Assembly: GCA_046563655.1 (NCBI GenBank)
Contig: JAJCTO010000010.1
Coordinates: forward strand, 806,001 to 870,000
Reading direction: 5' to 3'
DNA from: Yuukianura sp. NJ FZ-2021
Lineage: Eukaryota
DNA: 64,000 bases
Numbering within the stretch: position 1 is the stretch's first letter; each line of letters opens with the position of its first letter. Positions 19,898 through 57,500 of the stretch are shown in pieces. The translations under genes were made by a program, and so were the position numbers. The notes under the pieces are model-generated. The model did no database searches, was not told the DNA's origin, and saw nothing but the letters and a program-made list of their open reading frames with translations.

Positions 19898-19901
19898 CTG
19901 A

Positions 19902-32200: not shown

Positions 32201-34838
32201 TCTTCCACAGCCTGTCGCAGACATGCGTCTGCAAAACACTAAAAGTGGGTTTTCCACAAACTGAAGTCCAGTCGCTGGTGTAACATACAAACTGTGTTAT
32301 GATGCCATGTGACGCGTTTGACAATAAATTTGTCAAATGGCCGGGGAACCTTCCACTTAAATTTGATACAAAGAGAAATGTTAGAGCAGGCTACTCAGAT
32401 ACGTTGTAACTTGATATACTAAGCCGCACTGAGGTTTCAAAATCAGTGCCGTAACCTACTTACGCTGAAACTTACGTTAGATTAGCAAGACAGAGACCGC
32501 GCTAGTAGCTAGCTCTATGTGAAACATATTCGACTGTTCCGCCTTAAGTACTCCAGTGCAAAGGGCCCTAAAAACACGACACCGACAAATTTGTATCAAT
32601 AGTTTTCCACAGCCTGTCGCAGACATGCGTCTGCAAAAGACTAAAAGTGGGTTTTCCACAAATTGAAGTCCAGCCGTTGGTGTAACATACAAACTTTGTT
32701 ATGATGCCATGTATCGCGTTTGACAATGAATTTGTCAAATGGCCGGAAAACTTTCCACTTAAATTTGATATAAAGAGAAATGTTAGAGCAGGCTACTCAG
32801 ATACGTTGTAACTTGATATACTAAGCCGCACTGAGGTTTCAAAATCAGTGCCGTAACCTACTTACGCTGAAACTTACGTTAGATTAGCAAGACAGAGACC
32901 GCGCTAGTAGCTAGCTCTATGTGAAACATATTCGACTGTTCCGCCTTAAGTACTCCAGTGCAAAGGGCCCTAAAAACACGACACCGACAAATTTGTATCA
33001 ATAGTTTTCCACAGCCTGTCGCAGACATGCGTCTGCAAAAGACTAAAAGTGGGTTTTCCACAAATTGAAGTCCAGCCGTTGGTGTAACATACAAACTTTG
33101 TTATGATGCCATGTATCGCGTTTGACAATGAATTTATCAAATGGCCGGAAAACTTTCCACTTAAATTTGATATAAAGAGAAATGTTAGAGCAGGCTACTC
33201 AGACACGTTGTAACTTGATATACTAAGCCGCACTGAGGTTTCAAAATCAGTGCCGTAACCTACTTACGCTGAAACTTACGTTAGATTAGCAAGACAGAGA
33301 CCGCGCTAGAAGCTAGCTCTATGTGAAACATATTCGACTGTTCCGCCTTAAGTACTCCAGCGCAAAGGGCCCTAAAAACACGACACCCACAAATTTGTAT
33401 CAATAGTCTTCCACAGCCTGTCGCAGACATGCGTCTGCAAAACACTAAAAGTGGGTTTTCCACAAATTGAAGTCCAGTCGCTGGTGTAACATACAAACTG
33501 TGTTATGATGCCATGTGACGCGTTTGACAATAAATTTGTCAAATGGCCGGGGAACTTTCCAGTTAAATTTGATACAAAGAGAAATGTTAGAGCAGGCTAC
33601 TCAGATACGTTGTAACTTGATATACTAAGCCGCACTGAGGTTTCAAAATCAGTGCCGTAACCTACTTACGCTGAAACTTACGTTAGATTAGCAAGACAGA
33701 GACCGCGCTAGTAGCTAGCTCTATGTGAAACATATTCGACTGTTCCGCCTTAAGTACTCCAGTGCAAAGGGCCCTAAAAACACGACACCGACAAATTTGT
33801 ATCAATAGTTTTCCACAGCCTGTCGCAGACATGCGTCTGCAAAAGACTAAAAGTGGGTTTTCCACAAATTGAAGTCCAGCCGTTGGTGTAACATACAAAC
33901 TTTGTTATGATGCCATGTATCGCGTTTGACAATGAATTTATCAAATGGCCGGAAAACTTTCCAGTTAAATTTGATATAAAGAGAAATGTTAGAGCAGGCT
34001 ACTCAGATACGTTGTAACTTGATATACTAAGCCGCACTGAGGTTTCAAAATCAGTGCCCTAACCTATTTACGCTGAAACTTACGTTAGATTAGCAAGACA
34101 GAGACCGCGCTAGAAGCTAGCTCTATGTGAAACATATTCGACTGTTCCGCCTTAAGTACTCCAGCGCAAAGGGCCCTAAAAACACGACACCCACAAATTT
34201 GTATCAATAGTCTTCCACAGCCTGTCGCAGACATGCGTCTGCAAAACACTAAAAGTGGGTTTTCCACAAACTGAAGTCCAGTCGCTGGTGTAACATACAA
34301 ACTGTGTTATGATGCCATGTGACGCGTTTGACAATAAATTTGTCAAATGGCCGGGGAACTTTCCACTTAAATTTGATACAAAGAGAAATGTTAGAGCAGG
34401 CTACTCAGATACGTTGTAACTTGTTATACTAAGCCGCACTGAGGTTTCAAAATCAGTGCCGTAACCTACTTACGCTGAAACTTACGTTAGATTAGCAAGA
34501 CAGAGACCGCGCTAGAAGCTAGCTCTATGTGAAACATATTCGACTGTTCCGCCTTAAGCACTCCAGCGCAAATTGCCCTAAAAACACGACACCGACAAAT
34601 TTGTATCAATAGTCTTCCACAGCCTGTCGCAGACATGCGTCTGCAAAAGACTAAAAGTGGGTTTTCCACAAATTGAAGTCCAGTCGCTGGTGTAACATAC
34701 AAACCCTGTTATGATGCCATGTATCGCGTTTGAAAATGAATTTGTCAAATGGCCGAAAAACTTTCCACTTAAATTTGATACAAAGAGAAATGTTAGAGCA
34801 GGCTACTCAGATACGTTGTAACTTGATATACTAAGCCG
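29290..34838. repeat. Tandem satellite, 402-bp unit, about 14 copies
   Basis: Homologous positions recur every 402 bp (one 401-bp unit). Units differ by scattered substitutions. Confidence 0.97.
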
Positions 34839-34856
34839 GCAATTCTATATCAAGAT

Positions 34857-35786
34857 TTGGCTCGCCGACTCAATCAAAAACGTCATATTTTGGAAAAGAC
34901 ACCCATTTTGGTAAAAAATATAAGTGCTGGTAAACATGGTAAAACAAATGGACTAGGACAAAGACAAGAAGAAGAAGATGAGGAGGAAGACCAGTTGTTT
35001 GGATCACAACTTCCGGCAGCAGCTAGCATGATTTATCAACAAGAACAAAACGAGACCAATTCTTCTTCTTATCCGGCGCTACTGCCGTCAAGTTTGAAAA
35101 CAAGTTTCCTTCAAGTTTCAGAACCATATATTATACAACAATGTGATGGTAGTCGAAATGTACGTAAACTTTTACGTTACATGCTATTAAACGACATTAC
35201 GTGGAACTCTTCCTTTGAAATTTTGATTCAAAAGCAACGATTGCCAGCAACAAATATTATCAAGATTATAAAATATTTTGTCAATCTCAAAGAACGAAAA
35301 CATACTAGAATACCATATGGTTTTCAACATGTTCGAGATTATTTACAAAAATACATGTTTTCAATGACTACAAGTCCAGCCGCCGCATCTGGAAATTCTT
35401 CCATATTTCGTCTAATTTCTTCTCCTGCCATACATTTCCAGGAGGAGGAGGAGGAGGAAGCAAGTTTTAGTCCAAATCCTAATTCAAATTATAATACACC
35501 AGCTGCTGCTGCCGCCGGAAGTGATCAAGGGAGGAGTGAGGAGGAGGAGGAGCAACCAGAAGTTGACGGAACAACTCCACCCTTTTCAATTTCTCGTCCT
35601 TCACCTACTGCTGGACTCGGTCGTCAGCAGCAGCAGCAGCAAAAGTTGCCAACACATTTTTCTCCAATTGCAAATCGACTTAGAAAAAGAATTCGACCAC
35701 CGGCTGCTGATCAGAGGACTGAAGCTGCTGCTGCTAAGAAGAAAAAAGGAACCAAAAAAGATGGAGGTGGAGGTGAAGGCAGTTAG
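34857..35786 (+). CDS. Polinton C hypothetical protein, 5' end replaced by satellite
   Basis: ITWNSSFEILIQKQRLPATNIIKII...PYGF resembles a domain recurrent in Maverick ORFs. Low-complexity C-terminus. Lies upstream of the penton. Confidence 0.5.
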   Translation: MARRLNQKRHILEKTPILVKNISAGKHGKTNGLGQRQEEEDEEEDQLFGSQLPAAASMIYQQEQNETNSSSYPALLPSSLKTSFLQVSEPYIIQQCDGSRNVRKLLRYMLLNDITWNSSFEILIQKQRLPATNIIKIIKYFVNLKERKHTRIPYGFQHVRDYLQKYMFSMTTSPAAASGNSSIFRLISSPAIHFQEEEEEEASFSPNPNSNYNTPAAAAAGSDQGRSEEEEEQPEVDGTTPPFSISRPSPTAGLGRQQQQQQKLPTHFSPIANRLRKRIRPPAADQRTEAAAAKKKKGTKKDGGGGEGS

Positions 35787-36257
35787 CTCATGAACCTTAC
35801 AGATGAACCTATACGGCATTGGGAAAAATTTTAATTCCAAAAAAAAATGTGGAAAGCAAGGCCAGCCTCCCCCCCCCCGGGGGCGCGCGCGCGCAAAGGG
35901 GGGCAGACCCATGCCTCATAAATGAAAATTTGGAACTTTGTTTTTGTGGGTAAGGAGATCGTGCTAGTCAAGTTGTGGAGTTTACCCATACCTCGTAAAT
36001 GAAAATTTGGAACTTTTTTTCCATGGTTAAGGAGTCCGTGCTAGTCAAGTTGTGGAGTTTAGTCCTGCTTCTGACTTTAAAGGATAAGCAACCACCATTT
36101 TTTCTGGAGGATTTTCACCCACCATCAAAAAAGGATCCCAGCTCCACAATTGTTTAGGATTCCTGCTCGCCAACTTTGGAGAAGGTCCGTGCTTTGCACT
36201 GTCTGCGTTTTGTAAGAAAAAAAAAGAAAAAAGAGAAGCAATTGGAGGGGGAGATAA

Positions 36258-37294
36258 TGACGAGTGCACCAGCTTCAAGTTCTACAAATTCTTCAAATTC
36301 ATTTTATGTTACACTCCAATCTAATGCAAGTTTGGACTATTTTCCTGGAAATCTAATTTCTGACTTTAAAAACAAATTGGCAAATTCAATTAGTCTTCCT
36401 GGTGACCAGTGGGAAGTGGCTCTCACAGATGTGAGTTATACATATGGCAATGCATTTATTCAAGCAAACCAAATCCTTTTTACTTCACGAATCGAGTATC
36501 CACCGCCTGCATTTTCTGGTGCCCCACTACCACCACCACCACCACCACCGGCGTCAAATTTTGCTGGAAATGGATATGGACCTCCTGTTGACCCGATGGA
36601 AGACAAGAGCATTTCGTTTCGTGAACGTCAGAGACGGGCTTCTGCTGCAATTGCCGCTGCTTCAACCAATACGTCTTCTTCTTCTAATTTTCACAGCAAC
36701 ATCCGCACCCTTCAACGTCCTTCATCTCCACCAAAAGCAATTGAAGTTGCAGTGAAAGCTCCAAAGCGTTTGATGACAGAGTACCAATTATTAAATCTTT
36801 TACATGAACTACTTCCACACTCCTCGTTTCGAATTGAAGCAAACATTTTCAAGTATCGTGTACCCCTTGTGGATGGAACAACAATCAAATTTAGTTCCAA
36901 AGTGGCTGATATTTTGGGACTTTATGGAAGAGAATTATCCTTGTCCAACCAAGCAAGACCAACTCTGCCAGCAGATGGATTTCGTCTCTACGAAGGAGAA
37001 GGGGCTTACCCAGTCTTTTTGAATGCTGGACAAACAAAACTTTTTGTTTATTGTAATTTAATTCGACCGCAATTTATTGGAGATGCTCTGGTTCCGGTTC
37101 TTCGAGTAGTCAACTATGAAGGAAAATTCCGGAAGCAACACTCGCATGAATTTGTTCATGCACATTACATGGATTTGGCAGTATCAGAATTTGACACAAT
37201 TCATATGTATATAATGAATGAAGTGGGAGAGAGGATGCCATTCGAGTTTGGTAACCCTACGGCTACACTACACTTTCGTGAAAAAAAGACATGA
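36258..37294 (+). CDS. Polinton minor capsid (penton), intact
   Basis: SFYVTLQSNASLDYFPGN...WEVALTDVSY; LFVYCNLIRPQFIGDALVPVLRVV...TLHFR. Confidence 0.9.
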
Positions 37295-37986
37295 GGTCAA
37301 GGCTGCCGCCATCACAACCTACTGTTCCATACAACTGTGCTGGAGACTTTCCTATTAATTCATTTTTTCAACAAAATTTACATTCGAATCAGGTTGGACA
37401 GCAGCAGCAGCAGCGAGGAGGAGGTTCTCCTCAACTTTACTTTAGTGGAGTTAGACGTCAAAAAGGTTAGGCAAAAAAGAAAAAAAATGAAAAGAAGAGA
37501 AAAAAAATTAATAAAAACAAAAAAAAACATTCTTAACTTCCTTGTTTTTTTTTTTGGTTTAAAAAAAATCCGGTTTAATTAGGAGCTGGGCTTGGAGGTG
37601 TTTTTGGTACAATTGCACGTCATTTGTTACCATTTGTTGAACAATACATTTTACCACACGCTGCATCTGCCACAAAAAGTGTAGCAGCTGACGTAATTTT
37701 TAATCGACAATCAATTAAAAATTCTTTAAAATCACATGGTTGGGAAGCATTAAAAGGAGTAGGAAAAAACGTAAAGAATCAGCAGACGGGATCAGGTATT
37801 CGAGGAGTCAAGAAGAGTAGACGGAGGTTAAAACAAAAATCCAACACCAAAAGAACTACTAGACGGAAAGGAAGAAAGAGGCTGCTACAGCGGGGACGAC
37901 GACGGAAACAACACTTGAGGAAAAAACGAAGAGCAACCAAAACTCGAAAGAACAACAAACCCACTGGGATCAGATATAATTTCTAA
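37291..37986 (+). CDS. Polinton core precursor protein, spliced (exons 37291-37465 and 37583-37986)
   Basis: Splicing gives LYFSGVRRQKGAGLGGVFGTIARHLLPF, colinear with LYFAGIRRQRGGGLGGVFGSVARYLVPF of 21941..22288. Long Arg/Lys-rich tail. Confidence 0.8.
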
Positions 37987-38084
37987 AAAAACCTAACCCG
38001 GAACCTGGACTTTTTTCGTTTCCTTTTTTATTTTTTCGAGGTGAGAAAACGAACAAATTTGGAGAAATTAGAAGAAACAAAAAA

Positions 38085-39437
38085 ATGCCAAAGGTAAAGA
38101 CTACAAAAGGATATGGAGGAACAGGGGTTGGACCAATTTCTCCATATACATTTGTCAGATCGGAAACAAATTTGTTTGAAGAACCAGCTTTTGACGTTAG
38201 TCTCTTGTCTACAATTCAATCAGAGTACCATTCAATTACTTCCTTGGCTGACTCCATGGCACCCATTGAATTTTATATTCAAGGGAATGACACACAATTT
38301 TCAGACTTGTCAGAGACAAAACTTTATCTAAAAACTCGAATTGTTGCTGAAAATGGAAGTGCTTTGGGTGAAGAGGATCTTGTTGCTCCTGTAAACAATT
38401 TTCTTCACTCACTCTTTCAACAACTAAGTGTACATCTCAATGAAAGTCTCATTACACCATCATCTAATCAATATGCGTATCGAAGCTACCTTGAAACACT
38501 ACTTGGTTATAATAAAGAGTTTAAAAAGTCTCAAGCTCAAGGAGCACTATACTACAAGGATAAGGATCCTTCCAACAAAAGTACAACTACTGAAGACGGG
38601 TACAAGACTCGCTTTGATTTGACAAAAAATAGCAAAAGCATAGAACTGATTGGACGTCCATTTGGAGATATTTTTTCTCAAAACAAGTTTTTGATTCCTG
38701 GAATTGATGTACGTGTTAGCTTCCTTCGATCTTCTCCTACATTTTGTTTAATTAGTAATACCCCAACTGGAAAATATCAAGTTCAAATTTCGGACGCAAG
38801 ACTTTTGATTCAAAAGCATACCCTACTACCTTCTCTGGTTACTTCAATTTTTAAAGAATGGGAACTTGGACGACCAATCACATATCCTCTACGACGAGTG
38901 GAAATTAAAACTTATACAATTGGACCTGGTAGTGTTCAATTTATAAACGAGAATTTATTAAGCGGTCTCTTGCCAGATAGAATCATCATTGGACTTTTAC
39001 AATCAGAAGACTACATGGGAACTAGAACTTCTAATCCATACAACTTTTCTCACTTTGACCTAAATCATCTCAATGTTACAGTCAATGGAGAACAAAGTTC
39101 TTGTCTACCTCTTCATTTGGATTGGGACGGAGACCAATACATTCAACTCTACAACAATCTTTTTTACGGACTTGGAATGTCAAACGAAAATGTTGGAATT
39201 GATATGACGCGAGCCGAGTATAAAAATCAACCCCTCATGATTTATAACTTACGTCATACCAGAGAAGGATTTGCTCCGCCACGACATGGAAACGTCAAAA
39301 TTGAATTAAAATTTAAAAAAGCTCTAGCAAAGGCCATAACTGTCCTAGTATATGCTGAATATCAAGCAGTACTCTACATTGACTCGAGCAAGAACGTCTT
39401 TTGGAAAGACTACAGTAGTACGAGTAGTAGCAACTAG
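38085..39437 (+). CDS. Polinton major capsid protein, intact (450 aa)
   Basis: PIEFYI, DLSETKLYL, PVNNFLHSLF, YAYRSYLETLL, LPDRIIIG, NPYNFSHF, VYAEY. Confidence 0.93.
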   Translation: MPKVKTTKGYGGTGVGPISPYTFVRSETNLFEEPAFDVSLLSTIQSEYHSITSLADSMAPIEFYIQGNDTQFSDLSETKLYLKTRIVAENGSALGEEDLVAPVNNFLHSLFQQLSVHLNESLITPSSNQYAYRSYLETLLGYNKEFKKSQAQGALYYKDKDPSNKSTTTEDGYKTRFDLTKNSKSIELIGRPFGDIFSQNKFLIPGIDVRVSFLRSSPTFCLISNTPTGKYQVQISDARLLIQKHTLLPSLVTSIFKEWELGRPITYPLRRVEIKTYTIGPGSVQFINENLLSGLLPDRIIIGLLQSEDYMGTRTSNPYNFSHFDLNHLNVTVNGEQSSCLPLHLDWDGDQYIQLYNNLFYGLGMSNENVGIDMTRAEYKNQPLMIYNLRHTREGFAPPRHGNVKIELKFKKALAKAITVLVYAEYQAVLYIDSSKNVFWKDYSSTSSSN

Positions 39438-39448
39438 GAAGAGTCCAA

Positions 39449-39479
<31 letters not shown>

Positions 39480-39513
39480 TCTCGCGTGGAAGAGTTTAAC
39501 TGGAACCACCAGA

Positions 39514-40053
39514 AATGGAGACGAGTCAAATTTTAAATACCTTTCATGCTTTTTGAAAAGTAACTCGGCCACCTTCCACGTCCTTCCTTGTGATTATTTG
39601 ACTCTTCTTACAGTTTCACGTTATCCTCTATGCCTTGTTGTAAATTCGGATCCGTCCACTTCTCCTGGAAGTCATTGGATGGCTCTATTTCGGGAACATT
39701 CCAGAGCATCTCTCAAGTTTATCGATTCATATGGAATGGGGATTGACTTTTATGACAAATCCTTCACAAACTTTGCTAATCGACTTGGAGCTCCAATTGT
39801 AGAAAATGTAAAAACACTCCAAAGCCACAACTCTCAAGTTTGCGGTGAATTCGCAATCTACTTTTTGTATAAACCCTACAATTCTTGTTGTCTCATGAGC
39901 ATCTACTGTAACTTCAATTCAAATTTAAAACAAAATGATAGGTTAGTTAAGCAATTTGTAAGAAAACGACTAAAAAATAGAAATACAAAATTTTTCTCAT
40001 CCTCCTCCTCCTCTTTGTCAGCTACAATTGAGCAATGTTGTACTCCATTTTAA
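39514..40053 (+). pseudogene. Adenain-like protease; probable 1-nt frameshift near the start
   Basis: GSHWMALF, FIDSYG, LQSHNSQVCGEF. The ATG at 39514 (METSQI) matches MNTEEI of the other copy but is out of frame with the catalytic body. Confidence 0.8.
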
Positions 40054-40473: not shown

Positions 40474-41686
40474 TTACTCATCTGATCTGATGCCATTGTT
40501 AGTACCAAAATAAGTACAAATGTTGACTTGACGAGAGACAAACGGAAACTGCTGCTCGAAACCAACTCCATTCCACCTCATATCAGTCCTTACAGCAACA
40601 AAAACCTCACTTGTCCTATCTATTTCTACGTCTCTCCTCCTCCTCCCACATCTCACAACTAACAGACTCCACCTCTTTCAGTGTTAAATTTGACCAACTG
40701 TTGTTCCAACAGACAGAAGCCCTGCCTCATTTCTGGCTACTCCATCTTGGTCTGTCTACCTGAAAACGTTTTTTACGACTAACATAAAAACTAAAGACTA
40801 GACGTACGCAATTCTTACGGCGACAGCATGTCAAATTCACACATAAATAAAAGATTTTCTTTTTATTGTTTTTTCTTTAGCAGTCAATCGTTTCTGGCGG
40901 CGCTGAAGGTTCGCGGTCGTAAAGTTGTTCCTTTTCTTCTTCTTCTTCTTCTCCTTCCGGTGCGTGATGTTTTCCATTTTTGTCAATTTCACGGTGGTAT
41001 GAACTCACCTCATCCTCAGCTGAATACACATTGTGCCGGATGGGCTGTATGACCTGTGACCTCTACTGTGGATGCTGGATGAGATGCTGGATGAGATGGA
41101 AGGAGAGAGAAGACCGACAAGACAAGTGAAGCCAATGAGAGCTTTATTCAGACTGAGTGAATGAATGGAATGAATGTATGTGCAGTAGCCTATACTTTGC
41201 CTATGAGGGGTGAGATGGGTGCTGTGTATGGGGTGTGCTACACATTGGGGGGCTGAAAAAGGGGGTCCTCCGGGGGGGGGGGGTATGTCCAAAATCCGGG
41301 GGATGGTCCAAGGAAAGTCCAAGAAAATCCAATGTACAGGGCCAGTCATCATCTAATCAGGAACGAGAGCACCATCCGGTGTCGGTTTTGTTTAATTACG
41401 ACGTTGTCGTCTCCTCTGATTTTCTTCCCATTGTTCGCTCTTTTTGGATTTGGCAAGAAAATATTCGGGATATTCCTCCATCACTCTGCGTTTTCTAATG
41501 TGCATATTTCTCATGAAGTTGGAGTCTTTCTTCAAATAGAGTTGGCGGTTTCAACAGTGACTCCTGGCGTGATTTGGTCGAAAGCAGATGAAGCAATATG
41601 GCGGAAGTTTCGAGTTTGGTGGAGAAATGGCAGACTTAGATGTTGGAAGAACTGATTTACGACGCTTCGAGATTACGACAACACGA

Positions 41687-43211
41687 TTAGTCGAAGCGAT
41701 ACACAATTTCTTCAATTTCACATTCGACTTCCATTTCTGGTTCCTCTAATTCCGTCTGAGTTTCGATAGACTTATGTGATAATGTGATTTTGGGAGCTGG
41801 AGGAGGTTTACGTGGGGTTGATGTAGATGGAGTTGGTTCCAGAAATGTTGAAATGTTGTCGTCATCATCAGAAATTGTCAGTAGATCAAGCTCTTCTAGA
41901 GCGGTAAGTTCTTTGAAAGATCGTTTGACTGTTTGTTGTGGAACGGAAGTGATTTCTTCGTCGTCTGAGACGATGTCAACCAAAGTTGGAGCGGGTTCGG
42001 GACGAGGGGTGACTTTGATAAATTTCTTCGGCTTAGGGACTATAATTTGAAGAATATCTTGACAGAAGTGTTTCGCAAAGAAGTAGGAATTGCTTGGCAT
42101 GAAACTTAGGAGATTTTTCTCAGACTTAATCTTTTCTTTGTTGAGGCAGATAGTCATGAGTCTTGAAGTTTCAGCGATCAAAGTTGGAGGTAAATCAAGT
42201 TTTTGTGCAATTTCATTTCTTTTTTGAAACAATCTGGAAAAGTGTTGTCGTTCTTCAGAGGAGCCATTGAACTTTTTGATTGTTTCTTCAAAATTTTCCA
42301 GTTTTGGAAGATGAAAAGCGGGCAAAATCTGATTTGATCTTGTGCATGATGTGACTTCCGTACAACTTCTTGAGTTGGTTCCAAATTTTTAAGACAATGT
42401 GGGAATCAGTTCTGGCATATTCAATTTGTTCTGCCGTCAAAGGCCTTTGAGTCCAGTTGGATGTTTGATAGTGAGTTTTGTCCGGTAGTTAAATGTCAGG
42501 GAAGTAATGAGTTGCAATTTCAGTAAGAGATGCTTGCTTCTTGATGACTTTAGATTGTGGTTGTCCTTCTGCCTGATCTTTCCAACTTAAAAGTTCAATT
42601 TGGTAATTGCCAGTTAGATTGTAGTGAGCCTTCTGAACATCAACTACTGGAAACGGGAAGATCTCGAAATAAAGATGAAATTTTGCTAAGTCTTGTTGTG
42701 GTGAATGTGTAATCTTCAGAATTTCCGTTTCTTCTAGGACAGATTTCAGTTCAGAGATGTGTTTGGCGAAGAGAAAAGGGCAAAGAACATAATCCTGACG
42801 ATTTGTAGAAAATTGGAGTAGAGCTGGGTAGGAGGAGCCGAAGTATGAATTGTCTGCCTTGAATTTAGTGCCGATTTTTGTTCCAGAAAACTCCATGTCA
42901 ACCGAAAATGCATCTTGACCTTCTAGGTCGCTTCTCATCATATTGAACTCCTCTAGAGTGGAAATTAATTTGACTGGAGTAGAGCTGCGCGTGTCAGACG
43001 TGCTATCACATTCTCGGAGTTCCGTTCGACGAGGACAAAGAGCGAATCGCTTTCCAGCTTCGTAGTATGGATGAATTTTTGTCCGATTCAATTTTTTGTT
43101 TCGATTGAGAACGGTTTCATGATACTCTCGGAAGTAGTAACTTTGCATCGACCGGATCCTTCTGGAAATGCTCAGTTTCCTTCTAACATTTTGATCTCGA
43201 TTGGAATTCAT
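41687..43211 (-). pseudogene. RNase D/RRP6-like DEDDy 3'-5' exonuclease plus probable HRDC domain (one stop, one frameshift)
   Basis: ExoI SVDMEF; LLQFST; ExoII HSPQQDL. Past the TAA at 42489-42491 the frame reads YQTSNWTQRPLTAEQIEYARTDSHIVLKIWNQL (ExoIII). The next frame gives FSRLFQKRNEIAQKLDLPPTLIA (HRDC-like). Confidence 0.85.
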
Positions 43212-46200
43212 CTGTAATCAACAAAATTGAGGATTTTAGTAATTTTTTCTGATCTTTGATGTTCAATTCCACCTCTAGTGGTTCACATGCATCGTAATAC
43301 TCTTGAAAGTCAAAGAGATTCTCGTATTTGTCTTCAAATTTGACAACTAACGCTTTGTTTTTAAAACCCGCTAAAGTACGGCAATTTATGCGAGACTTTT
43401 GTCGAAGATTTCTTTGATTGCCGATTTCTGATTGTAAGTCATTTGAATTTACTGTAGGACTTTTGTCTGAGGTACTGGGCTCATCTAGAGCATTAATATT
43501 TGTCTGTTGTCGTGAAACGTAATGTTTAATTTGAGAAACATGTCTCTTTCCAATACTTTGTTTGTCAACTGTCTGTAAAATGTCAAATGTCACATTAGAA
43601 AGTCGTTCTCCCAATTCATATGGGCCTTGCCATCTAGGCGCTAATTTTTCCATAAAACCAGACTCTTTGTCAGATTGAACATGGGATTTAATTAAGACTG
43701 AATCTCCTTTTTTGAAATTGTCTTGTATCCGACTTTTGTCGTACTGTATTTTATTTTTCTCATGAGCTTTGTGAATATTTTCTCTTACAAATTGAACTAA
43801 TTCCTGTACCAATCTTGGTGTCTGTTTGAGTTCTTCAGAACTAAGTTCTGGCTCTTCCAGAGCTAAATTTCTGTCGAATGGTAATTGGATTTCTCTCCCG
43901 AGATTTAATAAGGCTGGTGACACTTTTGTAGTCTCGTTCATCACAGTTCTGAGTGCTAAGGCGAACTTTTGAATATTTTCTTCCCATTTATGGTGACTCG
44001 ATTCCAAGTACGCTTGAAGCATTGCTTTGATATTTCGATTTGTTCTTTCGGAATGATTAGCCTGAGCATGATACGGACTGATGAATTTGTGTTGAATATT
44101 CCATTCAGAGCACAAGTTTTTGAGAATGTTTGAATCGAAGTATGTAGCATTGTCAGAAAGAATTCTCTTCGGAGTGCCATACCGGCAAAATATTTGATTT
44201 TCTAAAATGTCCGCAACTTTTTTCGCTGTGATTTCTGTCACAGGAAATAATTCAATCCATTTGGAAAGTTCGTCTAGAACGACAAGTAAATGTTTACTTT
44301 GTTTTCCTCCAGCACTCGTCGGCAGGGGTCCAATGAAGTCAAAATGAATTGTAGAAAATACAGCCTTTGCTGGCTCTGCTAATTGCAGTAAACCGAATGG
44401 TTTATGATTGTTTGCTTTGGATCTTTGACAACGATCACATGATTTGACATAAGTTGCGATTTCTTTGTTCATATTGTTCCAATAACATCTTTGTTTGATT
44501 CTTTCGAGGGTTTTGGTTCTACCCAAGTGTCCCGCTTCTGGGGCATCATGAAAGATTTGTAGGATCCTTTGAGTTATTTGCTTTGGAATAACTGGAACAT
44601 AATAATCTTCTAGATTTTTTGCTTGTAGCTTGGTAGTTTTTTGACCTTCTAAGTCTAAATTTTCAGCTGAAGTGTCTGTTCGTGCCGCGGTTTTCAAATG
44701 ATTGCAATCTGGTCGTAGACAGAGGGGGATGTGACAAGCAGAGTTGCGCTTCTCTGTTGTATTGGTAAGTTTTGGATCCATGCCTGGATTCGTAGTCATG
44801 CCCTTGAAGGGTTTAATTTTGATGAATAGGGTGTTTCTATCCATTTTGTAACTCTTCAAGCACCTTGGCCGAGGTACTGAAGAATTCTGAAGTTGGTCAA
44901 TTATCTTGGAAAGATTTTCATCCTTCCGTTGCTCCTGGGCGATTTCATCTATTGTCGGAGTACAATAGACTAAAAGAAAACTCGGTAAATAGAGTGTTTC
45001 CCGGTCTTGGAACATATCGGGGTCGTCTGGACCTTCTGGGACACTAGCACGTGATAACGCGTCCGCCACCACGTTTTCGCATCCTTTGCGAAATCTGAGT
45101 TTCGCGTTCCACGATAAAATTTCCATTGCCCACTGCGTGAGTTTTGCTTTCTTGTTCTTCATACCTTTAAGGTATCGGACCGCTCGATTATCGGTTTCTA
45201 TGATGAAGGGATGATCTTCTATGAATTCGCGGAGTTTGTCGTATGAGAAAATAATAGCATAAAGCTCTTTTTCATAGATGTGTGCGCTTCTTTCCGACTG
45301 TTTCAAAGTCTTACTCACGAACATGATTGGTCTTTCTTTCCCTTCGTGTTCTTGGACAAGGGCTGCGCCTAAGCCAGTAGTTGAGGCGTCACATTGCATA
45401 ATCAGGGGTTTTGAGTAGTCAAGAGTTGTTAAAGTGACTGTATCGGTAATCGCGTCCTTAAGTAGTTGGAAGGACTCTTGTTGAGGGACATCCCACTTCC
45501 ATTTCTTTCCTTTTCTGAGAAGTGTGTATAAATTTTCTGCTTTGATACTGTAGTTTTTGATGAAGCTGGAATACCAGCCACACATCCCAAGGAATCGGTA
45601 GAGTTCTTTCTTGTTAGATGGAGGTGGGTAGTTGGAAATTGCGTCTTGTTTGCTGGGTTGTTTCTGAATTCCGTTTTGAGAAGCAATATGTCCTAGATAT
45701 GGAACTTCATTTTTTGCAAAAATTGATTTTTCTCTCCCAATTGTAAGATTTGCTTCACGTAGTCTCTCTAAGACGAGTTCGAGGTGTTTCATATGTTCCT
45801 CTAAGTTTTTGGAGTAGATTAGGATATCGTCCATGAAAACTTTGACAAATTGGTCCACGTAACCGTGTAGGACGTTCCTCATGACTGCTTGAAAAGTCTT
45901 TGGGCTGTTTTTAAGTCCCATGGGCATCACTAAAAATTCGTAATGTCCATCTTGTGTAATAAATGCTGTCTTTTCGATGCTGTCTTCGTGCATCGGAATT
46001 TGCCAAAAGCCTCCGTTGAGATCAAGAACTGTGAAGACGTAATTCATTGGTATAGTTCTGAGAATAGAGTTGACGTTGTCTATTGGACCTGCGTTTGTCT
46101 TCATTGTGTCGTTTAGACGAATGTAATTGACACAAAGGCGGTAGGAGCCTGATTTTTTCTTCACCATAACGACTGGAGCAGCATACGGTGAAGTAGAATG

Positions 46201-46890
46201 TCGAATCATTCCTTTTTGAAGTAACTTTTCGATTTCTTGATTCATAATTTCTCTCACATTTGGTGAGTATGAGTAAGGTGCAACAGCAATTGGTCTGCCT
46301 TGAGTTTCGATCTGATGACATCCGAAGCTTGTTCGTCCATAATTTCCATCCGGTCTTGCGACATCAGGGAATTTTTTGAGTACCTCTAGTACTTTTGCCT
46401 CTCTCGGATCTACTTTTTCATTTTCTTGAGGATTTTCAGTTGTAACTGTCAGCGCTACTATTTTTGCATCTCGTTCTGGAGAAAATTTGGTTTTGAATAT
46501 TTCGTTTGGTCTGGACTTGAACCAAAATTGATCTGTAGAAACATCAATGATGATCTGGTACTTGTGCATGACATCACGACCAATGATTAAAGGAAATGGA
46601 AGTGTCTGCATCACAAAAGCTTTGACATGGATGAATGTTCCTCCAAATTTGAGTTGAAGATTGATTTTTCCTAATGGCTTCAATTTTGAATTGTCAGCAA
46701 TGGTAAGTTGAAGTGAACACGGTTCGAAGTGTTTTTGAATTTTGTGAGCCAAATTTTTGTGAATAAGGGTGTAGTCACTGCCGGAATCGAATAACGCGTG
46801 AATTTCTTCTTGAGAATTTAAGGTTGCGCAAAGAGAACTCAATTTGAGAATTGGGAGTAAATAAGATTGCGCTGTCTTATTCTCCCTCAA
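43183..46890 (-). CDS. pol: Gypsy 2 pol (PR-RT-RNase H-integrase), uninterrupted
   Basis: LFDSGS; YRLCVNY; FMDD; CDAS; HDAPEAGH...CDRC; FDFIGP...SDNA...ERTN; GPY. Confidence 0.97.
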   Translation of the reverse strand: MRENKTAQSYLLPILKLSSLCATLNSQEEIHALFDSGSDYTLIHKNLAHKIQKHFEPCSLQLTIADNSKLKPLGKINLQLKFGGTFIHVKAFVMQTLPFPLIIGRDVMHKYQIIIDVSTDQFWFKSRPNEIFKTKFSPERDAKIVALTVTTENPQENEKVDPREAKVLEVLKKFPDVARPDGNYGRTSFGCHQIETQGRPIAVAPYSYSPNVREIMNQEIEKLLQKGMIRHSTSPYAAPVVMVKKKSGSYRLCVNYIRLNDTMKTNAGPIDNVNSILRTIPMNYVFTVLDLNGGFWQIPMHEDSIEKTAFITQDGHYEFLVMPMGLKNSPKTFQAVMRNVLHGYVDQFVKVFMDDILIYSKNLEEHMKHLELVLERLREANLTIGREKSIFAKNEVPYLGHIASQNGIQKQPSKQDAISNYPPPSNKKELYRFLGMCGWYSSFIKNYSIKAENLYTLLRKGKKWKWDVPQQESFQLLKDAITDTVTLTTLDYSKPLIMQCDASTTGLGAALVQEHEGKERPIMFVSKTLKQSERSAHIYEKELYAIIFSYDKLREFIEDHPFIIETDNRAVRYLKGMKNKKAKLTQWAMEILSWNAKLRFRKGCENVVADALSRASVPEGPDDPDMFQDRETLYLPSFLLVYCTPTIDEIAQEQRKDENLSKIIDQLQNSSVPRPRCLKSYKMDRNTLFIKIKPFKGMTTNPGMDPKLTNTTEKRNSACHIPLCLRPDCNHLKTAARTDTSAENLDLEGQKTTKLQAKNLEDYYVPVIPKQITQRILQIFHDAPEAGHLGRTKTLERIKQRCYWNNMNKEIATYVKSCDRCQRSKANNHKPFGLLQLAEPAKAVFSTIHFDFIGPLPTSAGGKQSKHLLVVLDELSKWIELFPVTEITAKKVADILENQIFCRYGTPKRILSDNATYFDSNILKNLCSEWNIQHKFISPYHAQANHSERTNRNIKAMLQAYLESSHHKWEENIQKFALALRTVMNETTKVSPALLNLGREIQLPFDRNLALEEPELSSEELKQTPRLVQELVQFVRENIHKAHEKNKIQYDKSRIQDNFKKGDSVLIKSHVQSDKESGFMEKLAPRWQGPYELGERLSNVTFDILQTVDKQSIGKRHVSQIKHYVSRQQTNINALDEPSTSDKSPTVNSNDLQSEIGNQRNLRQKSRINCRTLAGFKNKALVVKFEDKYENLFDFQEYYDACEPLEVELNIKDQKKLLKSSILLITDEFQSRSKC

Positions 46891-48467
46891 TAGTTTAAAT
46901 TTTGAGATGAGTTGTGCTCCTGTCCCTCTAGGACTTGAAATTCTTTTTGTTCACTTTCTCCAGTGAATAGAACAAGCGGTTTCTTGTTTCCGCATTCATT
47001 AGCCCAATGCCCATAACCTTGGCACTTTGGGCATTTCCCAGGGGGATCATTCTGCGATTTGGAACTCGGTCCTGGCTGTTGATTGTCATTGCTTCTTCCC
47101 TCTTCGGGATTTCGATTTTGGGAATTCCCATATCCTTGGTTTTGATAACCGCGTTTGTAACCTCGACGAAATGGTCTGGAAGAATTGTATCCACGATTGG
47201 AGTACTGACCCACATATCCTTCATCTTGCGATCCGGAATTTTGTCCAAAACGGTAATTTGGATTGTAGTTTCTGCCTTTGTAATTTGGGTTTTGTCCATT
47301 GTTCTGGTAACGTCCGTGTCCTTGTACACGTCGGTAAAATCCTCTAGATCTTCCTCTGCGATTTGAAAACCCTCTAGTTTGAGATTGATTCTCTTCCTGC
47401 GTTTCTTTTTGTTGATTTGTTTCGGAATTGTAAACGACTCTCGAGTCTTGTTGATAATTCTGAGCATTGTTGTATCCTCTGCCGCGGTAATTCTGGTACG
47501 GGCGGGATTGAAATCTCTGCGAAAAGTTTCCTCGCTGATTGTTGGTTGTGTTCTGGAGACTGAGTGCCACAAGTGGAGGTAAAGCGTCATAAATTCTGCG
47601 ACTTTTGTCCTCTGCCGTGAGATTTTCATGTGCAACTCGACAAGCTGCAAACAATTCTTGTGGAGTCTCGAACTCTCTTTCCCCAAGTGGGGTTCTGAGT
47701 CTTGGAAACAATGAAGCTTTGACTCTTTTGATCATTTGTTTTAGTGTTTCATTTGGAAAACACAACTTTGCTAATCGTAGCATTTCATAGATGTACGTCT
47801 CCGTAGGATCTTTAAAATGTTGAACTCTGTTCGTGAAATATTTGATTCGATTTCTCTGTTCATCCTCTCCATCGTAGCGTTCGATGAAAGTTTTCTCAAA
47901 TTCTTCCCAGTCCTTTGTTTCAGAATGGACATGTTGCCACCAAGCGTGACTTTCCTCTGGAAGAACAGTTTTGACTAAATATAGCCATTGTTGAGGTGCG
48001 TGACCTTGCGTAGTGAAGAAACGTTCAACGTCTTTGAGAAATGATTCTGCGGTATGTCGCTTTGGATTAAACTTTGGAAGTGGCAGTTGAGAATTAACTG
48101 CTGTAACACGAACATTTTTGAGAGCTTCAGCCAAGGCTTCCGTCGTAACGAAGCTTGAAGTCGGAGAGGCTGGTGAATGTGAAGTTGAAATTTGTAAGCT
48201 TTTGGGCCGCTGTGATGAAGTTGATTGAATTGGGATTGATCCAATTTGTTGTTGACCCAGTTGTTGTTGATCATTTGTCTGAGCTAATTGTTGCTGTTGA
48301 ACAGCTTTTCTTTGAGCTTCTGCTGTCTGTCTGGTCCTTTCAGCTTCATTAATAGCTGCTGCATATAACTGGGTAAGAGCTGCCATCTGTCGGTCATTGA
48401 ATGGATAATCTGCTTCTTCTTCTTCTTCTTGGTTTGATCTGTCAATCATTTGTTGATCCAAATTCAA
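46887..48467 (-). CDS. gag: Gypsy 2 gag
   Basis: LPKFN...FLKDVERFF...WW...WEEFEKTFIERY capsid-like region; RG-rich region; CPKCQGYGHWANEC knuckle. Confidence 0.9.
   Translation of the reverse strand: MNLDQQMIDRSNQEEEEEADYPFNDRQMAALTQLYAAAINEAERTRQTAEAQRKAVQQQQLAQTNDQQQLGQQQIGSIPIQSTSSQRPKSLQISTSHSPASPTSSFVTTEALAEALKNVRVTAVNSQLPLPKFNPKRHTAESFLKDVERFFTTQGHAPQQWLYLVKTVLPEESHAWWQHVHSETKDWEEFEKTFIERYDGEDEQRNRIKYFTNRVQHFKDPTETYIYEMLRLAKLCFPNETLKQMIKRVKASLFPRLRTPLGEREFETPQELFAACRVAHENLTAEDKSRRIYDALPPLVALSLQNTTNNQRGNFSQRFQSRPYQNYRGRGYNNAQNYQQDSRVVYNSETNQQKETQEENQSQTRGFSNRRGRSRGFYRRVQGHGRYQNNGQNPNYKGRNYNPNYRFGQNSGSQDEGYVGQYSNRGYNSSRPFRRGYKRGYQNQGYGNSQNRNPEEGRSNDNQQPGPSSKSQNDPPGKCPKCQGYGHWANECGNKKPLVLFTGESEQKEFQVLEGQEHNSSQNLNY
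46893..46899 (-). promoter_or_regulatory. Probable -1 frameshift site U_UUA_AAC
   Basis: gag ends aat tta aac tat tga. The -1 frame reads cta ttg agg gag into pol. Confidence 0.75.
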
Positions 48468-50068
48468 ATTCGGCTCGAAATTTTGATTTTCCGGCGTAGA
48501 ATGTGCGGTACTTGCTGAGCTTCCAGCTTCCTCTTACCATTGACCCTCTAGGTCTGACATTGCTGTAGTTGATTTGCGAATTATTCGTCCACTTCGAGTT
48601 TTACTTGGTCCAAATGTTGGAGTTGGAATTTTTGTTTGCGTAGGTTTTTTGCTCATTAAGCACTTTTCAGAATCCTTCTAGGATTTATCGTTATGAAGTT
48701 TGATTTTTAATTTAAAATTGTTCAATTTAACAATTAACTTGTTTTAAAAACTTTAATTTTTAACGAAAATCCAATTTTTTCTTTGCTACACGAAGTTTGT
48801 CAATTGATTTGTAAAATATTTAAATCGTTAACGTGAATTAATTAATTAAAATCTTTACAAATGTGCAAAAGTTCGTTAAAAGTTATTAATTAACAATTTG
48901 TCCCTCTAGGACTGAATTTATTTACTTTACAGTTGAGTCTGAATTAATTTTAAAACAAAACACTCAATGTTTGCACGAAAGTTTGAATTTACAAATTGTT
49001 TTTGTCGAACAGCTGACTTTTGTTTTTGTTTTGATTTGAAATGTCAATTTTTTGCGAAATTGGAATTTGTTTTGTCAATCGGCTGTCTTTTGTTTATGTT
49101 TACATCTCAAATGTCAAATGTCAATTGTCAATTGTCAATTTTTAGTTAGTGCAATTGGAATCTGTATTTCGTATTTTGTTTTGCAGTTTTGCAACTTTTC
49201 AATTGTAATTGTGTAAGTTTTTGACATACGTCAATTTGCTCAATTCTGATTGGCTGTCTTTTACTCTGTGGTGGTATGGTCGGGTGGGAATAGTCTCTTT
49301 CCCCTTCTTCTCGCTTTTTCTTTTTTCCGTTATGGGCGTGGCTTATCAGCAGCCATTTTAGCTTTTTACCAAAAAGACGCTATCTTTTTAGATTTTTTGA
49401 AAAATCGGGCAGCACCCGTGCCCCAATTTACAATTTGCACGAAAAATCGCCTTCCAGGCCTTATGTCGTTGACCCCTGACCTTCTGGTCGCTTGAAGGGG
49501 TGATGCTGTGCTGTGGAGATGGAAAAGGAAGAAAAAGACACGAAAGAGCTCTATCTTCCACTTTATGTTTTTAAAAATTTTTTTACAGTTTTAAGAATTT
49601 TAGCCAATTTTAACTTTTTATCTTGCTAAATTTTTAACTTTTTAACCAATTTGAACGTTAATTAGGCGCTTCCCGTCCTTTACTCCGTTTGATGACGGTT
49701 AATTTTTAAGAAAACGAAAGGAAAATGAAAGGAATAGGCGAATCTCCTTGACTTTTCCACACAATTTCACATTTTTTTTAACGTTTGTTAGTTTTACCGT
49801 TGCTTTTTCCTGATCTTGAGGATTGCAGGGTCGTCTCCTTGACAACAGTTCGACACGTGTGCCGGATGGGCTGTATGACCTGTGACCTCTACTGTGGATG
49901 CTGGATGAGATGCTGGATGAGATGGAAGGAGAGAGAAGACCGACAAGACAAGTGAAGCCAATGAGAGCTTTATTCAGACTGAGTGAATGAATGGAATGAA
50001 TGTATGTGCAGTAGCCTATGCTTAGCCTATGAGGGGTGAGATGGGTGCTGTGTATGGGGTGTGCTACA

Positions 50069-50490
50069 ACATTTATGCGCCTGTCCTTGTCGTACCAATC
50101 TTCTTCATCATCTCGTCCGTACCCAAATTCCACTTCCCCCCACATTTCCGTGTTCCAATGATCTGCCTTCATGCCTCCTACCTCCTTTCCATCCGACATC
50201 GAGCCATCTCTCCCGAAAATTTGATACCTCGCTGCCTGGCCAAATATTCCCCGTTTGCTGCGCCAACCACATGTTTAAAATTTGGCAATTTTTTGGGATT
50301 ACTTCCGCTGATTATGTAGCACTTGATAAGATTTTCAACAATGTACGGAACGTCCGTCATTAAAATGTCTGAACGCCAACCAGCTCTTTTGAACGTGACA
50401 GTCTTGGTCCAACCAATTTGATCCGCAGAGTACCAACACCTCAGTCGCATCTTTTCTTGCTCACTTGTAAAATTTTTCTTTGAGGCCATG
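50069..50490 (-). pseudogene. Polinton C accessory gene split by Gypsy 2 (3' part at about 40877-41031)
   Basis: Joining across the TSD gives DWYDKDRRINVYSAEDEVSSYHREIDKNG... to a stop at about 40877. One frameshift near 50190. Confidence 0.6.
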
Positions 50491-54152: not shown

Positions 54153-54227
54153 GTGACTCGATAGCTTAAGGGTTAGAGCTGTCTCCCCGGATTGGAGAAG
54201 GCGTGGGTTCGAATCCCACTCGGTCAC
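54153..54227 (+). ncRNA. tRNA-like Pol III unit in TRIM LTR1
   Basis: Acceptor gtgac(t)cga/tcggtcac; A-box tagcttaaggg; stem tctcc/ggaga with 7-nt loop; T-arm gtggg-ttcgaat-cccac; T6 run downstream. Confidence 0.75.
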
Positions 54228-54440
54228 TTATTTTTTCTGCACTGTCATCGTGTGTCTCTCAAGCAATGTGAGCCCTGATCCCTCACATATGGTGCCGAAA
54301 GCCGGGAAGGCAGTGAGGGGGCTTGAGGGGCGGGTGATGTGGCGTTTGGGAACAGTCCCACTCCCAACCGCCAAGGATAGAGGTGTATGGAATGGACAGT
54401 GCCTGTTATGGTAGCCTTCCGATTCTATCCTGTGCAGATT

Positions 54441-54515
54441 GTGACTCGATAGCTTAAGGGTTAGAGCTGTCTCCCCGGATTGGAGAAGGCGTGGGTTCGA
54501 ATCCCACTCGGTCAC
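54441..54515 (+). ncRNA. tRNA-like Pol III unit in TRIM LTR2
   Basis: Copy of 54153-54227, offset by 288 bp. Confidence 0.75.
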
Positions 54516-57500
54516 TTATTTTTTCTGCACTGTCATCGTGTGTCTCTCAAGCTATGTGAGCCCTGATCCCTCACACTCAAAGTTAACAAAACGAGCTGCA
54601 CTCTGTCTGGATCTTGTACGCGTTCCGGTGTCGATTTGTTGAGATAGCTTTTGTGTAGCAGGTATTCGCCTCAAGGAATTATAAACCACTCTAAAACCCA
54701 ATAGTAACTACCCTGGTTAGAAACCGCGCAATGCCATCACTGACAACAGCTAATGGATATTCAAGAGGAAATAAGTAAAAGTTTGAACGATATTTGAAAC
54801 TACGAAGTCGGTTGCTTGATATAGTTCCAAGTTTGGTAACTTATAAATGGTTTCTTGCAGCAAATTTTGTACGATTTGTATTTCCCAATAGCGTATTAGG
54901 CAAACTTTGAACCCAGGTATTTAAGATCGCCGCTCCGATGCGATGAAACGTTCGTTAAAACCATATTTCAGAAGGTTGGATAAACCGTACGTTACTCCGT
55001 TTTTATTATGCACCCCTCCAACACCAGAAAAATTACAACTGACTCTCAAATCATAATGTGTTTTCAACCGAACCTGCAAATGTACCTGTTTTATTGCGTT
55101 CAAACCCACTTTGCAGAAAGTTGGTATCTCGACAAGTTACCAGCACAATTGCATGCCTGTATTTACTCAACCACAGCAGAAATAGTTTCTGCTACAGGAT
55201 GAGGCGACCCTCATTGATTATGAAATTTAGTGAAATATTCAGTTTCAATAAAGCTACTTGGTTTCGGGGGCGTGTGACTGCTCTAAGTTAACAAAACGAG
55301 CTGCACTCTGTCTGGATCTTGTACGCGTTCCGGTGTCGATTTGTTGAGATAGCTTTTGTGTAGCAGGTATTCGCCTCAAGGAATTATAAACCACTCTAAA
55401 ACCCAATAGTAACTAGCCTGGTTAGAAACCGCGCAATGCCATCACTGACAACAGCTAATGGATATTCAAGAGGAAATAAGTAAAAGTTTGAACGATATTT
55501 GAAACTACGAAGTCGGTTGCTTGATATAGTTCCAAGTTTGGTAACTTATAAATGGTTTCTTGCAGCAAATTTTGTACGATTTGTATTTCCCAATAGCGTA
55601 TTAGGCAAACTTTGAACCCAGGTATTTAAGATCGCCGCTCCGATGCGATGAAACGTTCGTTAAAACCATATTTCAGAAGGTTGGATAAACCGTACGTTAC
55701 TCCGTTTTTATTATGCACCCCTCCAACACCAGAAAAATTACAACTGACTCTCAAATCATAATGTGTTTTCAACCGAACCTGCAAATGTACCTGTTTTATT
55801 GCGTTCAAACCCACTTTGCAGAAAGTTGGTATCTCGACAAGTTACCAGCACAATTGCATGCCTGTATTTACTCAACCACAGCAGAAATAGTTTATGCTAC
55901 AGGATGAGGCGACCCTCATTGATTATGAAATTTAGTGAAATATTCAGTTTCAATAAAGCTACTTGGTTTCGGGGGCGTGTGACTGCTCTAAGTTAACAAA
56001 ACGAGCTGCACTCTGTCTGGATCTTGTACGCGTTCCGGTGTCGATTTGTTGAGATAGCTTTTGTGTAGCAGGTATTCGCCTCAAGGAATTATAAACCACT
56101 CTAAAACCCAATAGTAACTAGCCTGGTTAGAAACCGCGCAATGCCATCACTGACAACAGCTAATGGATATTCAAGAGGAAATAAGTAAAAGTTTGAACGA
56201 TATTTGAAACTACGAGGTCGGTTGCTTGATATAGTTCCAAGTTTGGTAACTTATAAATGGTTTCTTGCAGCAAATTTTGTACGATTTGTATTTCCCAATA
56301 GCGTATTAGGCAAACTTTGAACCCAGGTATTTAAGATCGCCGCTCCGATGCGATGAAACGTTCGTTAAAACCATATTTCAGAAGGTTGGATAAACCATAC
56401 GTTACTCCGTTTTTATTATGCACCCCGCCAACACCAGAAAAATTACAACTGACTCTCAAATCATAATGTGTTTTCAACCGAACCCGCAAATGTACCTGTT
56501 TTATTGCGTTCAAACCCACTTTGCAGAAAGTTGGTATCTCGACAAGTTACCAGCACAATTGCATGCCTGTATTTACTCAACCACAGCAGAAATAGTTTAT
56601 GCTACAGGATGAGGCGACCCTCATTGATTATGAAATTTAGTGAAATATTCAGTTTCAATAAAGCTACTTGGTTTCGGGGGCGTGTGACTGCTCTAAGTTA
56701 ACAAAACGAGCTGCACTCTGTCTGGATCTTGTACGCGTTCCGGTGTCGATTTGTTGAGATGGCTTTTGTGTAGCAGGTATTCGCCTCAAGGAATTATAAA
56801 CCACTCTAAAACCCAATAGTAACTAGCCTGGTTAGAAACCGCGCAATGCCATCACTGACAACAGCTAATGGATATTCAAGAGGAAATAAGTAAAAGTTTG
56901 AACGATATTTGAAACTACGAAGTCGGTTGCTTGATATAGTTCCAAGTTTGGTAACTTATAAATGGTTTCTTGCAGCAAATTTTGTACGATTTGTATTTCC
57001 CAATAGCGTATTAGGCAAACTTTGAACCCAGGTATTTAAGATCGCCGCTCCGATGCGATGAAACGTTCGTTAAAACCATATTTCAGAAGGTTGGATAAAC
57101 CATACGTTACTCCGTTTTTATTATGCACCCCTCCAACACCAGAAAAATTACAACTGACTCTCAAATCATAATGTGTTTTCAACCGAACCCGCAAATGTAC
57201 CTGTTTTATTGCGTTCAAACCCACTTTGCAGAAAGTTGGTATCTCGACAAGTTACCAGCACAATTGCATGCCTGTATTTACTCAACCACAGCAGAAATAG
57301 TTTATGCTACAGGATGAGGCGACCCTCATTGATTATGAAATTTAGTGAAATATTCAGTTTCAATAAAGCTACTTGGTTTCGGGGGCGTGTGACTGCTCTA
57401 AGTTAACAAAACGAGCTGCACTCTGTCTGGATCTTGTACGCGTTCCGGTGTCGATTTGTTGAGATGGCTTTTGTGTAGCAGGTATTCGCCTCAAGGAATT

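Follow-up and report, generated by a model that had tools for sequence, protein, structure and literature searches.

A Ty3/gypsy retrotransposon of Yuukianura sp. with a third gene related to the RRP6 exonuclease core

The sequence analysed here, called the window throughout, is a stretch of 64,000 nucleotides from Yuukianura sp. NJ FZ-2021 (assembly GCA_046563655.1, contig JAJCTO010000010.1, positions 806,001 to 870,000), and all positions given are those of the window. We found that it holds a complete Ty3/gypsy long terminal repeat (LTR) retrotransposon on the minus strand, at 41032-50068, with a target duplication of 4-5 bases. Between pol and the 3' LTR of this element lies a third open reading frame (ORF3), a broken relative of the exonuclease RRP6, which is the subject of this report.

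The element and its third gene

Read along the minus strand, the element is made up as follows.

50069..50072, minus strand: target-site duplication, upstream copy, 4 bases; the fifth neighbouring base matches too
49858..50068, minus strand: 5' LTR, 211 bases, TG...CA ends; 2/211 differences from the 3' LTR
48468..49857, minus strand: leader of ~1.39 kb with a single donor-like ATG/GTAAGA (G of GT at 48537), called from sequence only
46887..48467, minus strand: gag, open, 526 codons, with a CCHC knuckle; its Pfam matches are weak, all below cut-offs
43183..46950, minus strand: pol, open, 1235 codons, with protease, reverse transcriptase (RT), RNase H, integrase and an SH3-like end
43212..43226, minus strand: acceptor-like pyrimidine-rich stretch ttttgttgattacag, ending in ATTACAG and abutting the ORF3 ATG at 43211
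41032..41242, minus strand: 3' LTR, 211 bases
41028..41031, minus strand: target-site duplication, downstream copy

The TG...CA LTR pair, the target duplication, gag and the order protease, RT, RNase H, integrase are all present, as expected of a member of Ty3/gypsy. The pol frame is -1 relative to gag, and the two genes overlap by 64 bases. On gag, Pfam gave Retrotrans_gag at E 1.6e-4 together with zinc-knuckle families, every match lying under its cut-off.

The ends of the element are fixed because an element-free form of the site occurs in DNA contigs: contigs from two public DNA runs connect 41027 to 50069, with 5 ambiguous letters. In one run the depth of the element-free contig is greater than that of the flank, so these contigs may derive from other copies of the target repeat, and we do not claim an insertion polymorphism from them. 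Contigs of four DNA runs hold many diverged copies of the element.

No primer binding site of the tRNA-3'-end type was recognised in the leader, and the longest complementarity between the leader and the two tRNA-Ser genes of the window is just 6 bases. A TTCGA in the leader was weighed as a match to a T-loop and dropped as unsupported. The place expected for the polypurine tract before the 3' LTR (41243-41300) consists mainly of runs of C, and a plus-strand primer site is not obvious there.

ORF3 itself, with the lesions of the window copy, reads as follows.

42489..43211, minus strand: ORF3 piece 1, the conserved module at the N-terminus plus motifs I and II of the exonuclease, ending at an in-frame TAA
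42489-42491, minus strand: lesion 1, the in-frame TAA
42366..42968, minus strand: DEDDy exonuclease domain (PF01612 in Pfam), covering residues 82-282 when the TAA is read through as X
42324..42341, minus strand: lesion 2, a frame change where a short stretch is missing, of a length not divisible by three
42041..42244, minus strand: HRDC domain, weak in the window copy
41687..42040, minus strand: acidic low-complexity linker, closing at the TAA of 41687-41689; relatives have a variable acidic linker in the same place
Between ~41745 and 41687, minus strand: lesion 3, the second frame change
41395..41745, minus strand: C-terminal remnant in the third frame, with a CCHC zinc knuckle and a basic tail; a stop follows at 41392-41394
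41554-41595, minus strand: the CCHC zinc knuckle, within the C-terminal remnant
41551-41553, minus strand: lesion 4, an in-frame TGA immediately after the knuckle

The motifs SVDMEF, HSPQQD, YQTSNWTQRPL and YARTD lie in a single frame, which is broken by the TAA at 42489-42491. The catalytic residues D105, E107, D174, Y265 and D269 are all kept in the translation and stand in conserved alignment columns; the window ORF3 is nonetheless broken between Exo II and Exo III. An original prediction, made from the letters of the window, had pointed to these DEDDy motifs, to a YQxxxWxxRPL segment, to the TAA at 42489 and to an ATG behind an acceptor-like stretch, and we located every one of them. It had also placed a frameshift at about 42300; a frame change is indeed present, but at ~42324-42341. 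Contigs of all four DNA runs, from two organisms, carry 35 more letters at this site than the window does, so this lesion is particular to the window copy or its close kin.

The exonuclease-HRDC stretch stands as proposed, but its extent does not: ORF3 had been taken to end at 41687 with two lesions, and the knuckle and tail had been missed. Because the third-frame stretch aligns to the C-termini of relatives, the ancestral gene reached about 41395, and it would have spanned ~43211-41395, about 600 codons. No fewer than four lesions disable the window copy: two stops in frame and two changes of frame. ORF3 is therefore dead in this copy, while gag and pol are open and the LTRs nearly identical, the last two points being as originally predicted.

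Descent and relatives of ORF3

With X at the TAA, the window ORF3 matches Pfam DNA_pol_A_exo1 (PF01612) at E 6e-22 and 78.7 bits, the cut-off being 23.6. Its match to Pfam HRDC (E 1.1e-3, 19.3 bits) is below the cut-off of 23.8, and relatives reach 37-42 bits. In hhalign, the HRDC residues of the window aligned to the HRDC columns of the family (79%, E 1.6e-5) and the C-terminal remnant to the knuckle-and-tail columns (72%, E 3.5e-5). The closest solved structures by sequence are RRP6 and EXOSC10, and a model of the window exonuclease (predicted local distance difference test score, pLDDT, 82.6) has RRP6 chains as its best fold match (E 1.4e-13). An RRP6-type exonuclease followed by an HRDC domain between pol and the 3' LTR, the core of the original prediction, is thus what Pfam, hhalign and fold matches all return, with profile and fold results well beyond chance.

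We also modelled the intact relative P0011, using 32 relatives, with a pLDDT of 85.5 overall, rising above 90 in the N-terminal module, in the core and around the knuckle. Foldseek with this model placed RRP6 catalytic cores at the top (4nlc, E 1.6e-22), with those of human and yeast next, and gave E. coli RNase D 4.5e-14. VIA-align laid residues 22-381 of P0011 on residues 179-588 of human RRP6 (Z 33.7, 349 aligned, root-mean-square deviation 5.4), whereas E. coli RNase D aligned to P0011 only from residue 83 (Z 24.1). Since the alignment on RRP6 covers it, the N-terminal module of the family corresponds to the N-terminal extension of the eukaryotic RRP6 core. A word-based search with the family profile scored cellular RRP6 at ~1e-74 and returned a list filled with cellular RRP6 proteins and no new named hosts.

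A word-based protein search with the window ORF3 gave no match at E <= 1e-3. An exhaustive search gave 604 proteins at E <= 1e-3, with P0003 at the top (41% identity, E 4.4e-38). The intact relatives whose existence had been suspected are found in this search and in the ORF3s of two metagenome contigs, L001 and L002. Full-length relatives share one plan: a conserved N-terminal module of ~80 residues leads into the exonuclease and HRDC, after which come a variable acidic linker, the knuckle and finally a basic tail. Among the 150 best matches, the pattern C-x2-C-x4-H-x4-C follows the HRDC or nuclease in 19 and PMC2NT occurs in 22, and the family forms at least 47 clusters at 50% identity. Metagenome records, where named, call its members 'ribonuclease D' or 'RRP6', and the sole organism name obtained from cluster look-ups is that of the springtail Orchesella dallaii. 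A locus scan with a 5-row alignment gave five loci, of which L001-L003 are family members and L004 and L005 are 23-25% matches on long contigs. No relative was found in the viral contigs searched. A search of a phage collection with pol gave no match, this collection not being a sensible place to look.

For the tree we used the exonuclease domains of 151 proteins, dropped 29 whose match was <150 positions and ran a quick maximum-likelihood analysis on the remaining 122 rows. One group of 47 rows includes the window ORF3, with a Shimodaira-Hasegawa-like approximate likelihood ratio test (SH-aLRT) support of 88 (90 for 45 of them), and takes in all 17 knuckle-bearing rows of the tree. Inside it the window ORF3 pairs with P0003, within a set of 23 rows. 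The RRP6 group has 48 rows, among them all 18 retained proteins with a PMC2NT match, and the RNase D-type group has 27. The window ORF3 sits outside the RRP6 clade, in a separate group.

The D-E-D-Y-D set is complete in 38/47 rows of this clade and in 74/75 of the other rows of the tree; the remaining clade rows are N-terminally truncated (3), D-E-E-Y-D (3) or degenerate (3). Pfam HRDC is found in 8/47 clade rows at or above the cut-off and in 14/47 at E <= 1e-3, a count to which the second batch contributes only matches down to 1e-4. Neither the window ORF3 nor any of the 47 clade rows has a Pfam match to PMC2NT. The second HRDC of bacterial RNase D (RNAseD_HRDC_C) likewise gave no match in the window or the clade rows, and is present in three matches of the RNase D-type group.

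We conclude that the window ORF3 descends from the RRP6 catalytic core, comprising the N-terminal extension, the DEDDy exonuclease and one HRDC. The case for this origin is carried mainly by fold and profile scores. The gene had been described as captured; in the sense of a recent pick-up from the host this is contradicted by the tree, where comparison with RRP6 and RNase D gives an old retroelement-borne clade with a C-terminal knuckle of its own.

The same linkage of ORF3 to pol was found elsewhere. On L002 the integrase (Integrase_H2C2, rve, SH3_Tf2-1) ends at 1656 and the ORF3, P0011, begins at 1693 in the same frame, with one stop between. On L001 the C-terminus of an integrase is followed after 325 bases by the ORF3 P0137 in another frame. 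The pol of the window is 43% identical over 555 amino acids to the L002 pol upstream of P0011, up to a common C-terminal motif, and the two ORF3s are ~25% identical. Moreover, three gene models of Orchesella dallaii have the SH3-like end of an integrase fused to an Exo-HRDC-knuckle protein. Because contigs and gene models agree in this linkage, ORF3 is a stable companion of one kind of pol and no local accident, and the clade is an old, diversified group of retroelement-borne genes travelling with gypsy-type pol.

On the minus strand of L001, at 57-1145, the pol upstream of the intact ORF3 is cut at its 5' side by unrelated frames of another element, so an intact ORF3 can sit in a truncated element copy. 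A weak likeness of the window pol tail to the N-terminal motif of the ORF3 P0006 was rejected, as the ORF3 frame itself aligns there. In the acidic linker of P0008, P0010, P0011, P0018, P0032, P0037, P0053, P0112 and P0137 we noted a recurrent tryptophan in the setting D/E-W-D/E (columns ~700-760 of alignment A1), which may be a short docking motif; the linker of the window is acidic and has no tryptophan.

The ATG of the window ORF3 at 43211 overlaps the last nine codons of pol in a different frame. ATTACAG stands directly before this ATG and one base before the ATG on L001; on L002 the nearest CAG is ~28 bases upstream. The donor-like site of the leader and ATTACAG would fit a spliced subgenomic RNA for ORF3, to judge from these three sequences, and a continuation of Pol may be the alternative in some lineages, where the frames agree.

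Known systems and the proposed role of ORF3

RRP6/EXOSC10 is a 3'-5' exoribonuclease of the nuclear exosome, and its PMC2NT domain binds Rrp47. It is the best match of ORF3 in sequence and fold and shares with it the N-terminal extension of the core, the DEDDy domain and a single HRDC. It differs in that PMC2NT is absent from the ORF3 family, where a zinc knuckle and a basic tail, behind an acidic linker, appear to replace the exosome-binding tail, and in that mobile elements encode this family, which has a clade to itself. Nibbler/Mut-7 and EXD1 have the same exonuclease fold; they score Z ~20 as against 33.7 for RRP6, and are host genes without the HRDC-and-knuckle arrangement.

The closest published parallel is that of Rodriguez et al. 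2017 (PMC5408684), who described an RNase D-like DEDDy ORF3 in the bdelloid elements Juno and Vesta, shared with Athena/Terminon, and stated that such nucleases were previously unreported in retrotransposons. As in our element, a DEDDy gene lies there behind pol of gypsy-like LTR elements and is closer to other element-borne copies than to host genes. In the text available of that paper the word HRDC has 0 occurrences and no C-terminal CCHC knuckle with a basic tail is described. Juno and Vesta have DEDD changed to DEED, whereas the window ORF3 and 38/47 clade rows keep DEDD and 3/47 have DEED. The latter rows are only a lead to kinship with Juno and Vesta, which were compared by description.

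Other couplings of nucleases to integrating enzymes are more distant. Kojima and Jurka 2013 (PMC3706591) reported a DEDDy exonuclease within the transposase of Dada DNA transposons and proposed that it processes 3' ends. Dada is thus also a mobile element joining a DEDDy nuclease to its integrating enzyme, but it is a DNA transposon, the domain is inserted within the transposase, and the text available reports no HRDC or knuckle. The 'trimmer-integrase' of CRISPR adaptation, in which a DEDDh exonuclease works with Cas1-Cas2 (PMC10284694), likewise couples an exonuclease to an integrase and offers an analogy for end trimming; as the source describes a prokaryotic DEDDh and not a DEDDy enzyme, of unrelated origin, it is an analogy only. 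A 2019 opinion paper (PMC6338049) includes, in the part available, a DnaQ-like exonuclease among known accessory domains.

In the literature covered (excluding subscription journals, Repbase and the figures and supplements of PMC5408684), we found no retrotransposon-borne exonuclease described as having an HRDC or a knuckle, no account of the RRP6-core-plus-knuckle plan and no description of DEDDy-ORF3 members outside rotifers. The original prediction had named nematode elements too as carriers of such genes; the same literature supports rotifers only. DEDDy third genes have already been published for rotifers; the RRP6-core-plus-knuckle architecture and its spread appear undescribed in this literature.

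Our reading, to which we assign a probability of roughly 70%, is that ORF3 is an RRP6-core-derived third gene of a gypsy element whose intact members work as a 3'-end trimmer. Translation of the intact protein would begin at a start codon of its own, placed right after the end of pol or overlapping it, on a spliced subgenomic RNA; in some lineages the protein would instead be made as an extension of Pol. Its HRDC, knuckle and basic tail would bind nucleic acid, and the nuclease would take nucleotides off free 3' ends that are single-stranded. Conservation of the catalytic set speaks for intact clade members being active 3'-5' exonucleases, and we predict this activity for them. The element's own replication intermediates (the primer, the 3' ends of the complementary DNA (cDNA) before integration, and the 3' end of the genomic RNA) would be the preferred and likeliest target, at somewhat short of even odds. 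We prefer a trimmer because ORF3 sits beside the integrase, may in some cases be fused to Pol and carries a knuckle and tail that are nucleocapsid-like. More tentatively, an ancient gypsy lineage may use its own RRP6-core nuclease and nucleocapsid-like knuckle as a partner of RT and integrase, polishing primer or cDNA 3' ends ahead of integration or even removing misincorporated 3' nucleotides. If true, retrotransposition would here include, for the first time, a 3'-5' exonuclease step encoded by the element itself.

Several observations weigh against a working trimmer of RRP6 descent. RRP6, RNase D and Nibbler all act on RNA, which leaves a role at DNA ends without direct support. The node joining the 47-row clade to the RRP6 group is weakly supported (39). 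The springtail fusions come from automatic gene prediction, in which introns may have been called wrongly. Four lesions lie in the 1.8 kb of ORF3 and none in the 5.3 kb of gag-pol, for which uniform placement gives a chance of 0.004. As the lesions are confined to ORF3, a lineage with a defective ORF3 may have stayed mobile, and the gene would then be dispensable in cis.

The alternative that survives best, though we regard it as doubtful, is counter-defence: the nuclease would degrade or shorten Piwi-interacting or small interfering RNAs of the host aimed at the element, or disturb surveillance of element RNA by the exosome, and would act in the cytoplasm or nucleus and not in the particle. 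The fold is also near to Nibbler/Mut-7 and EXD1, which are proteins of small-RNA pathways, and a protein without PMC2NT would no longer be coupled to the exosome; moreover, a silencing-related role is named as one possibility in the text available of Rodriguez et al. 2017 (PMC5408684). The position behind the integrase, the possible Pol fusions and the nucleocapsid-like knuckle with its basic tail better suit a particle-associated factor.

It is improbable that ORF3 is a neutral passenger, acquired once, without a role in the life cycle and now decaying. The four lesions beside an open gag and pol would agree with this, as would the statements of Rodriguez et al. (PMC5408684), in the part available, that ORF3 has no clear link to copy number and shows no departure from neutrality within genomes. 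Against it, the five catalytic residues are complete in 38/47 rows despite a mean column identity of ~19%, the N-terminal module, HRDC and knuckle are likewise kept, and ORF3 is still linked to pol genes that are 43% identical.

A recent transduction of host RRP6, or a host pseudogene lying by chance between the LTRs, is very hard to maintain. RRP6 is the closest named family, but the clade is separate from the PMC2NT-bearing RRP6 proteins, the same gene stands behind pol in unrelated contigs, the knuckle and tail are specific to the family, and the gene lies inside an LTR pair whose ends the element-free site confirms. Least credible of all is an envelope substitute for cell-to-cell transfer, for which nothing speaks except the position between pol and the 3' LTR: the soluble nuclease core and the knuckle account for the whole conserved length, and Pfam gave no envelope-type match (a Pfam scan only, with no transmembrane or signal predictor run).

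The usual view is that LTR retroelements need no more than gag, pol and, in some cases, env. A conserved, catalytically intact 3'-5' exonuclease of RRP6-core descent, fitted with a knuckle and tied to the integrase, would imply an unrecognised step of nucleic-acid end processing in some retroelements, or a new way of meeting the RNA surveillance of the host. The family is large and nearly unannotated, and its members may be mistaken for host genes in genome annotation. Natural intact proteins such as P0011 are open to direct testing.

Surroundings of the element in the window

The element is surrounded by other mobile elements. On the minus strand within 9820-15976 we found another gypsy-type pol, different from the first and 1651 codons long, with RT, RNase H and integrase; it is followed by an open frame of 402 codons without a Pfam match, which may be another kind of third gene. 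The region 8000-20000, which coincides with this second element, stands out from the remainder of the window by a G+C content of ~0.47-0.51 and a strong positive GC skew that reaches 0.35. At 4484-9181 there are a DUF1759 frame (BEL/Pao gag-type), a frame with RNase H and zf-RVT (non-LTR type) and a copia-type RVT_2 frame.

Nearer to the element, four long open frames of 319, 378, 485 and 234 codons lie on the plus strand at 34827-40053; they have no Pfam match and resemble a section of a large mobile element or of one that is virus-like. At 54153-54228 and 54441-54516, 288 bases apart, stand two tRNA-Ser(GGA)-like genes of identical sequence, perhaps tRNA genes in tandem or else repeats of tRNA origin. 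At 32879-34702 a tandem repeat of ~402 bases is present in at least 5 copies, each with a near-identical minus-strand frame of 71 codons.

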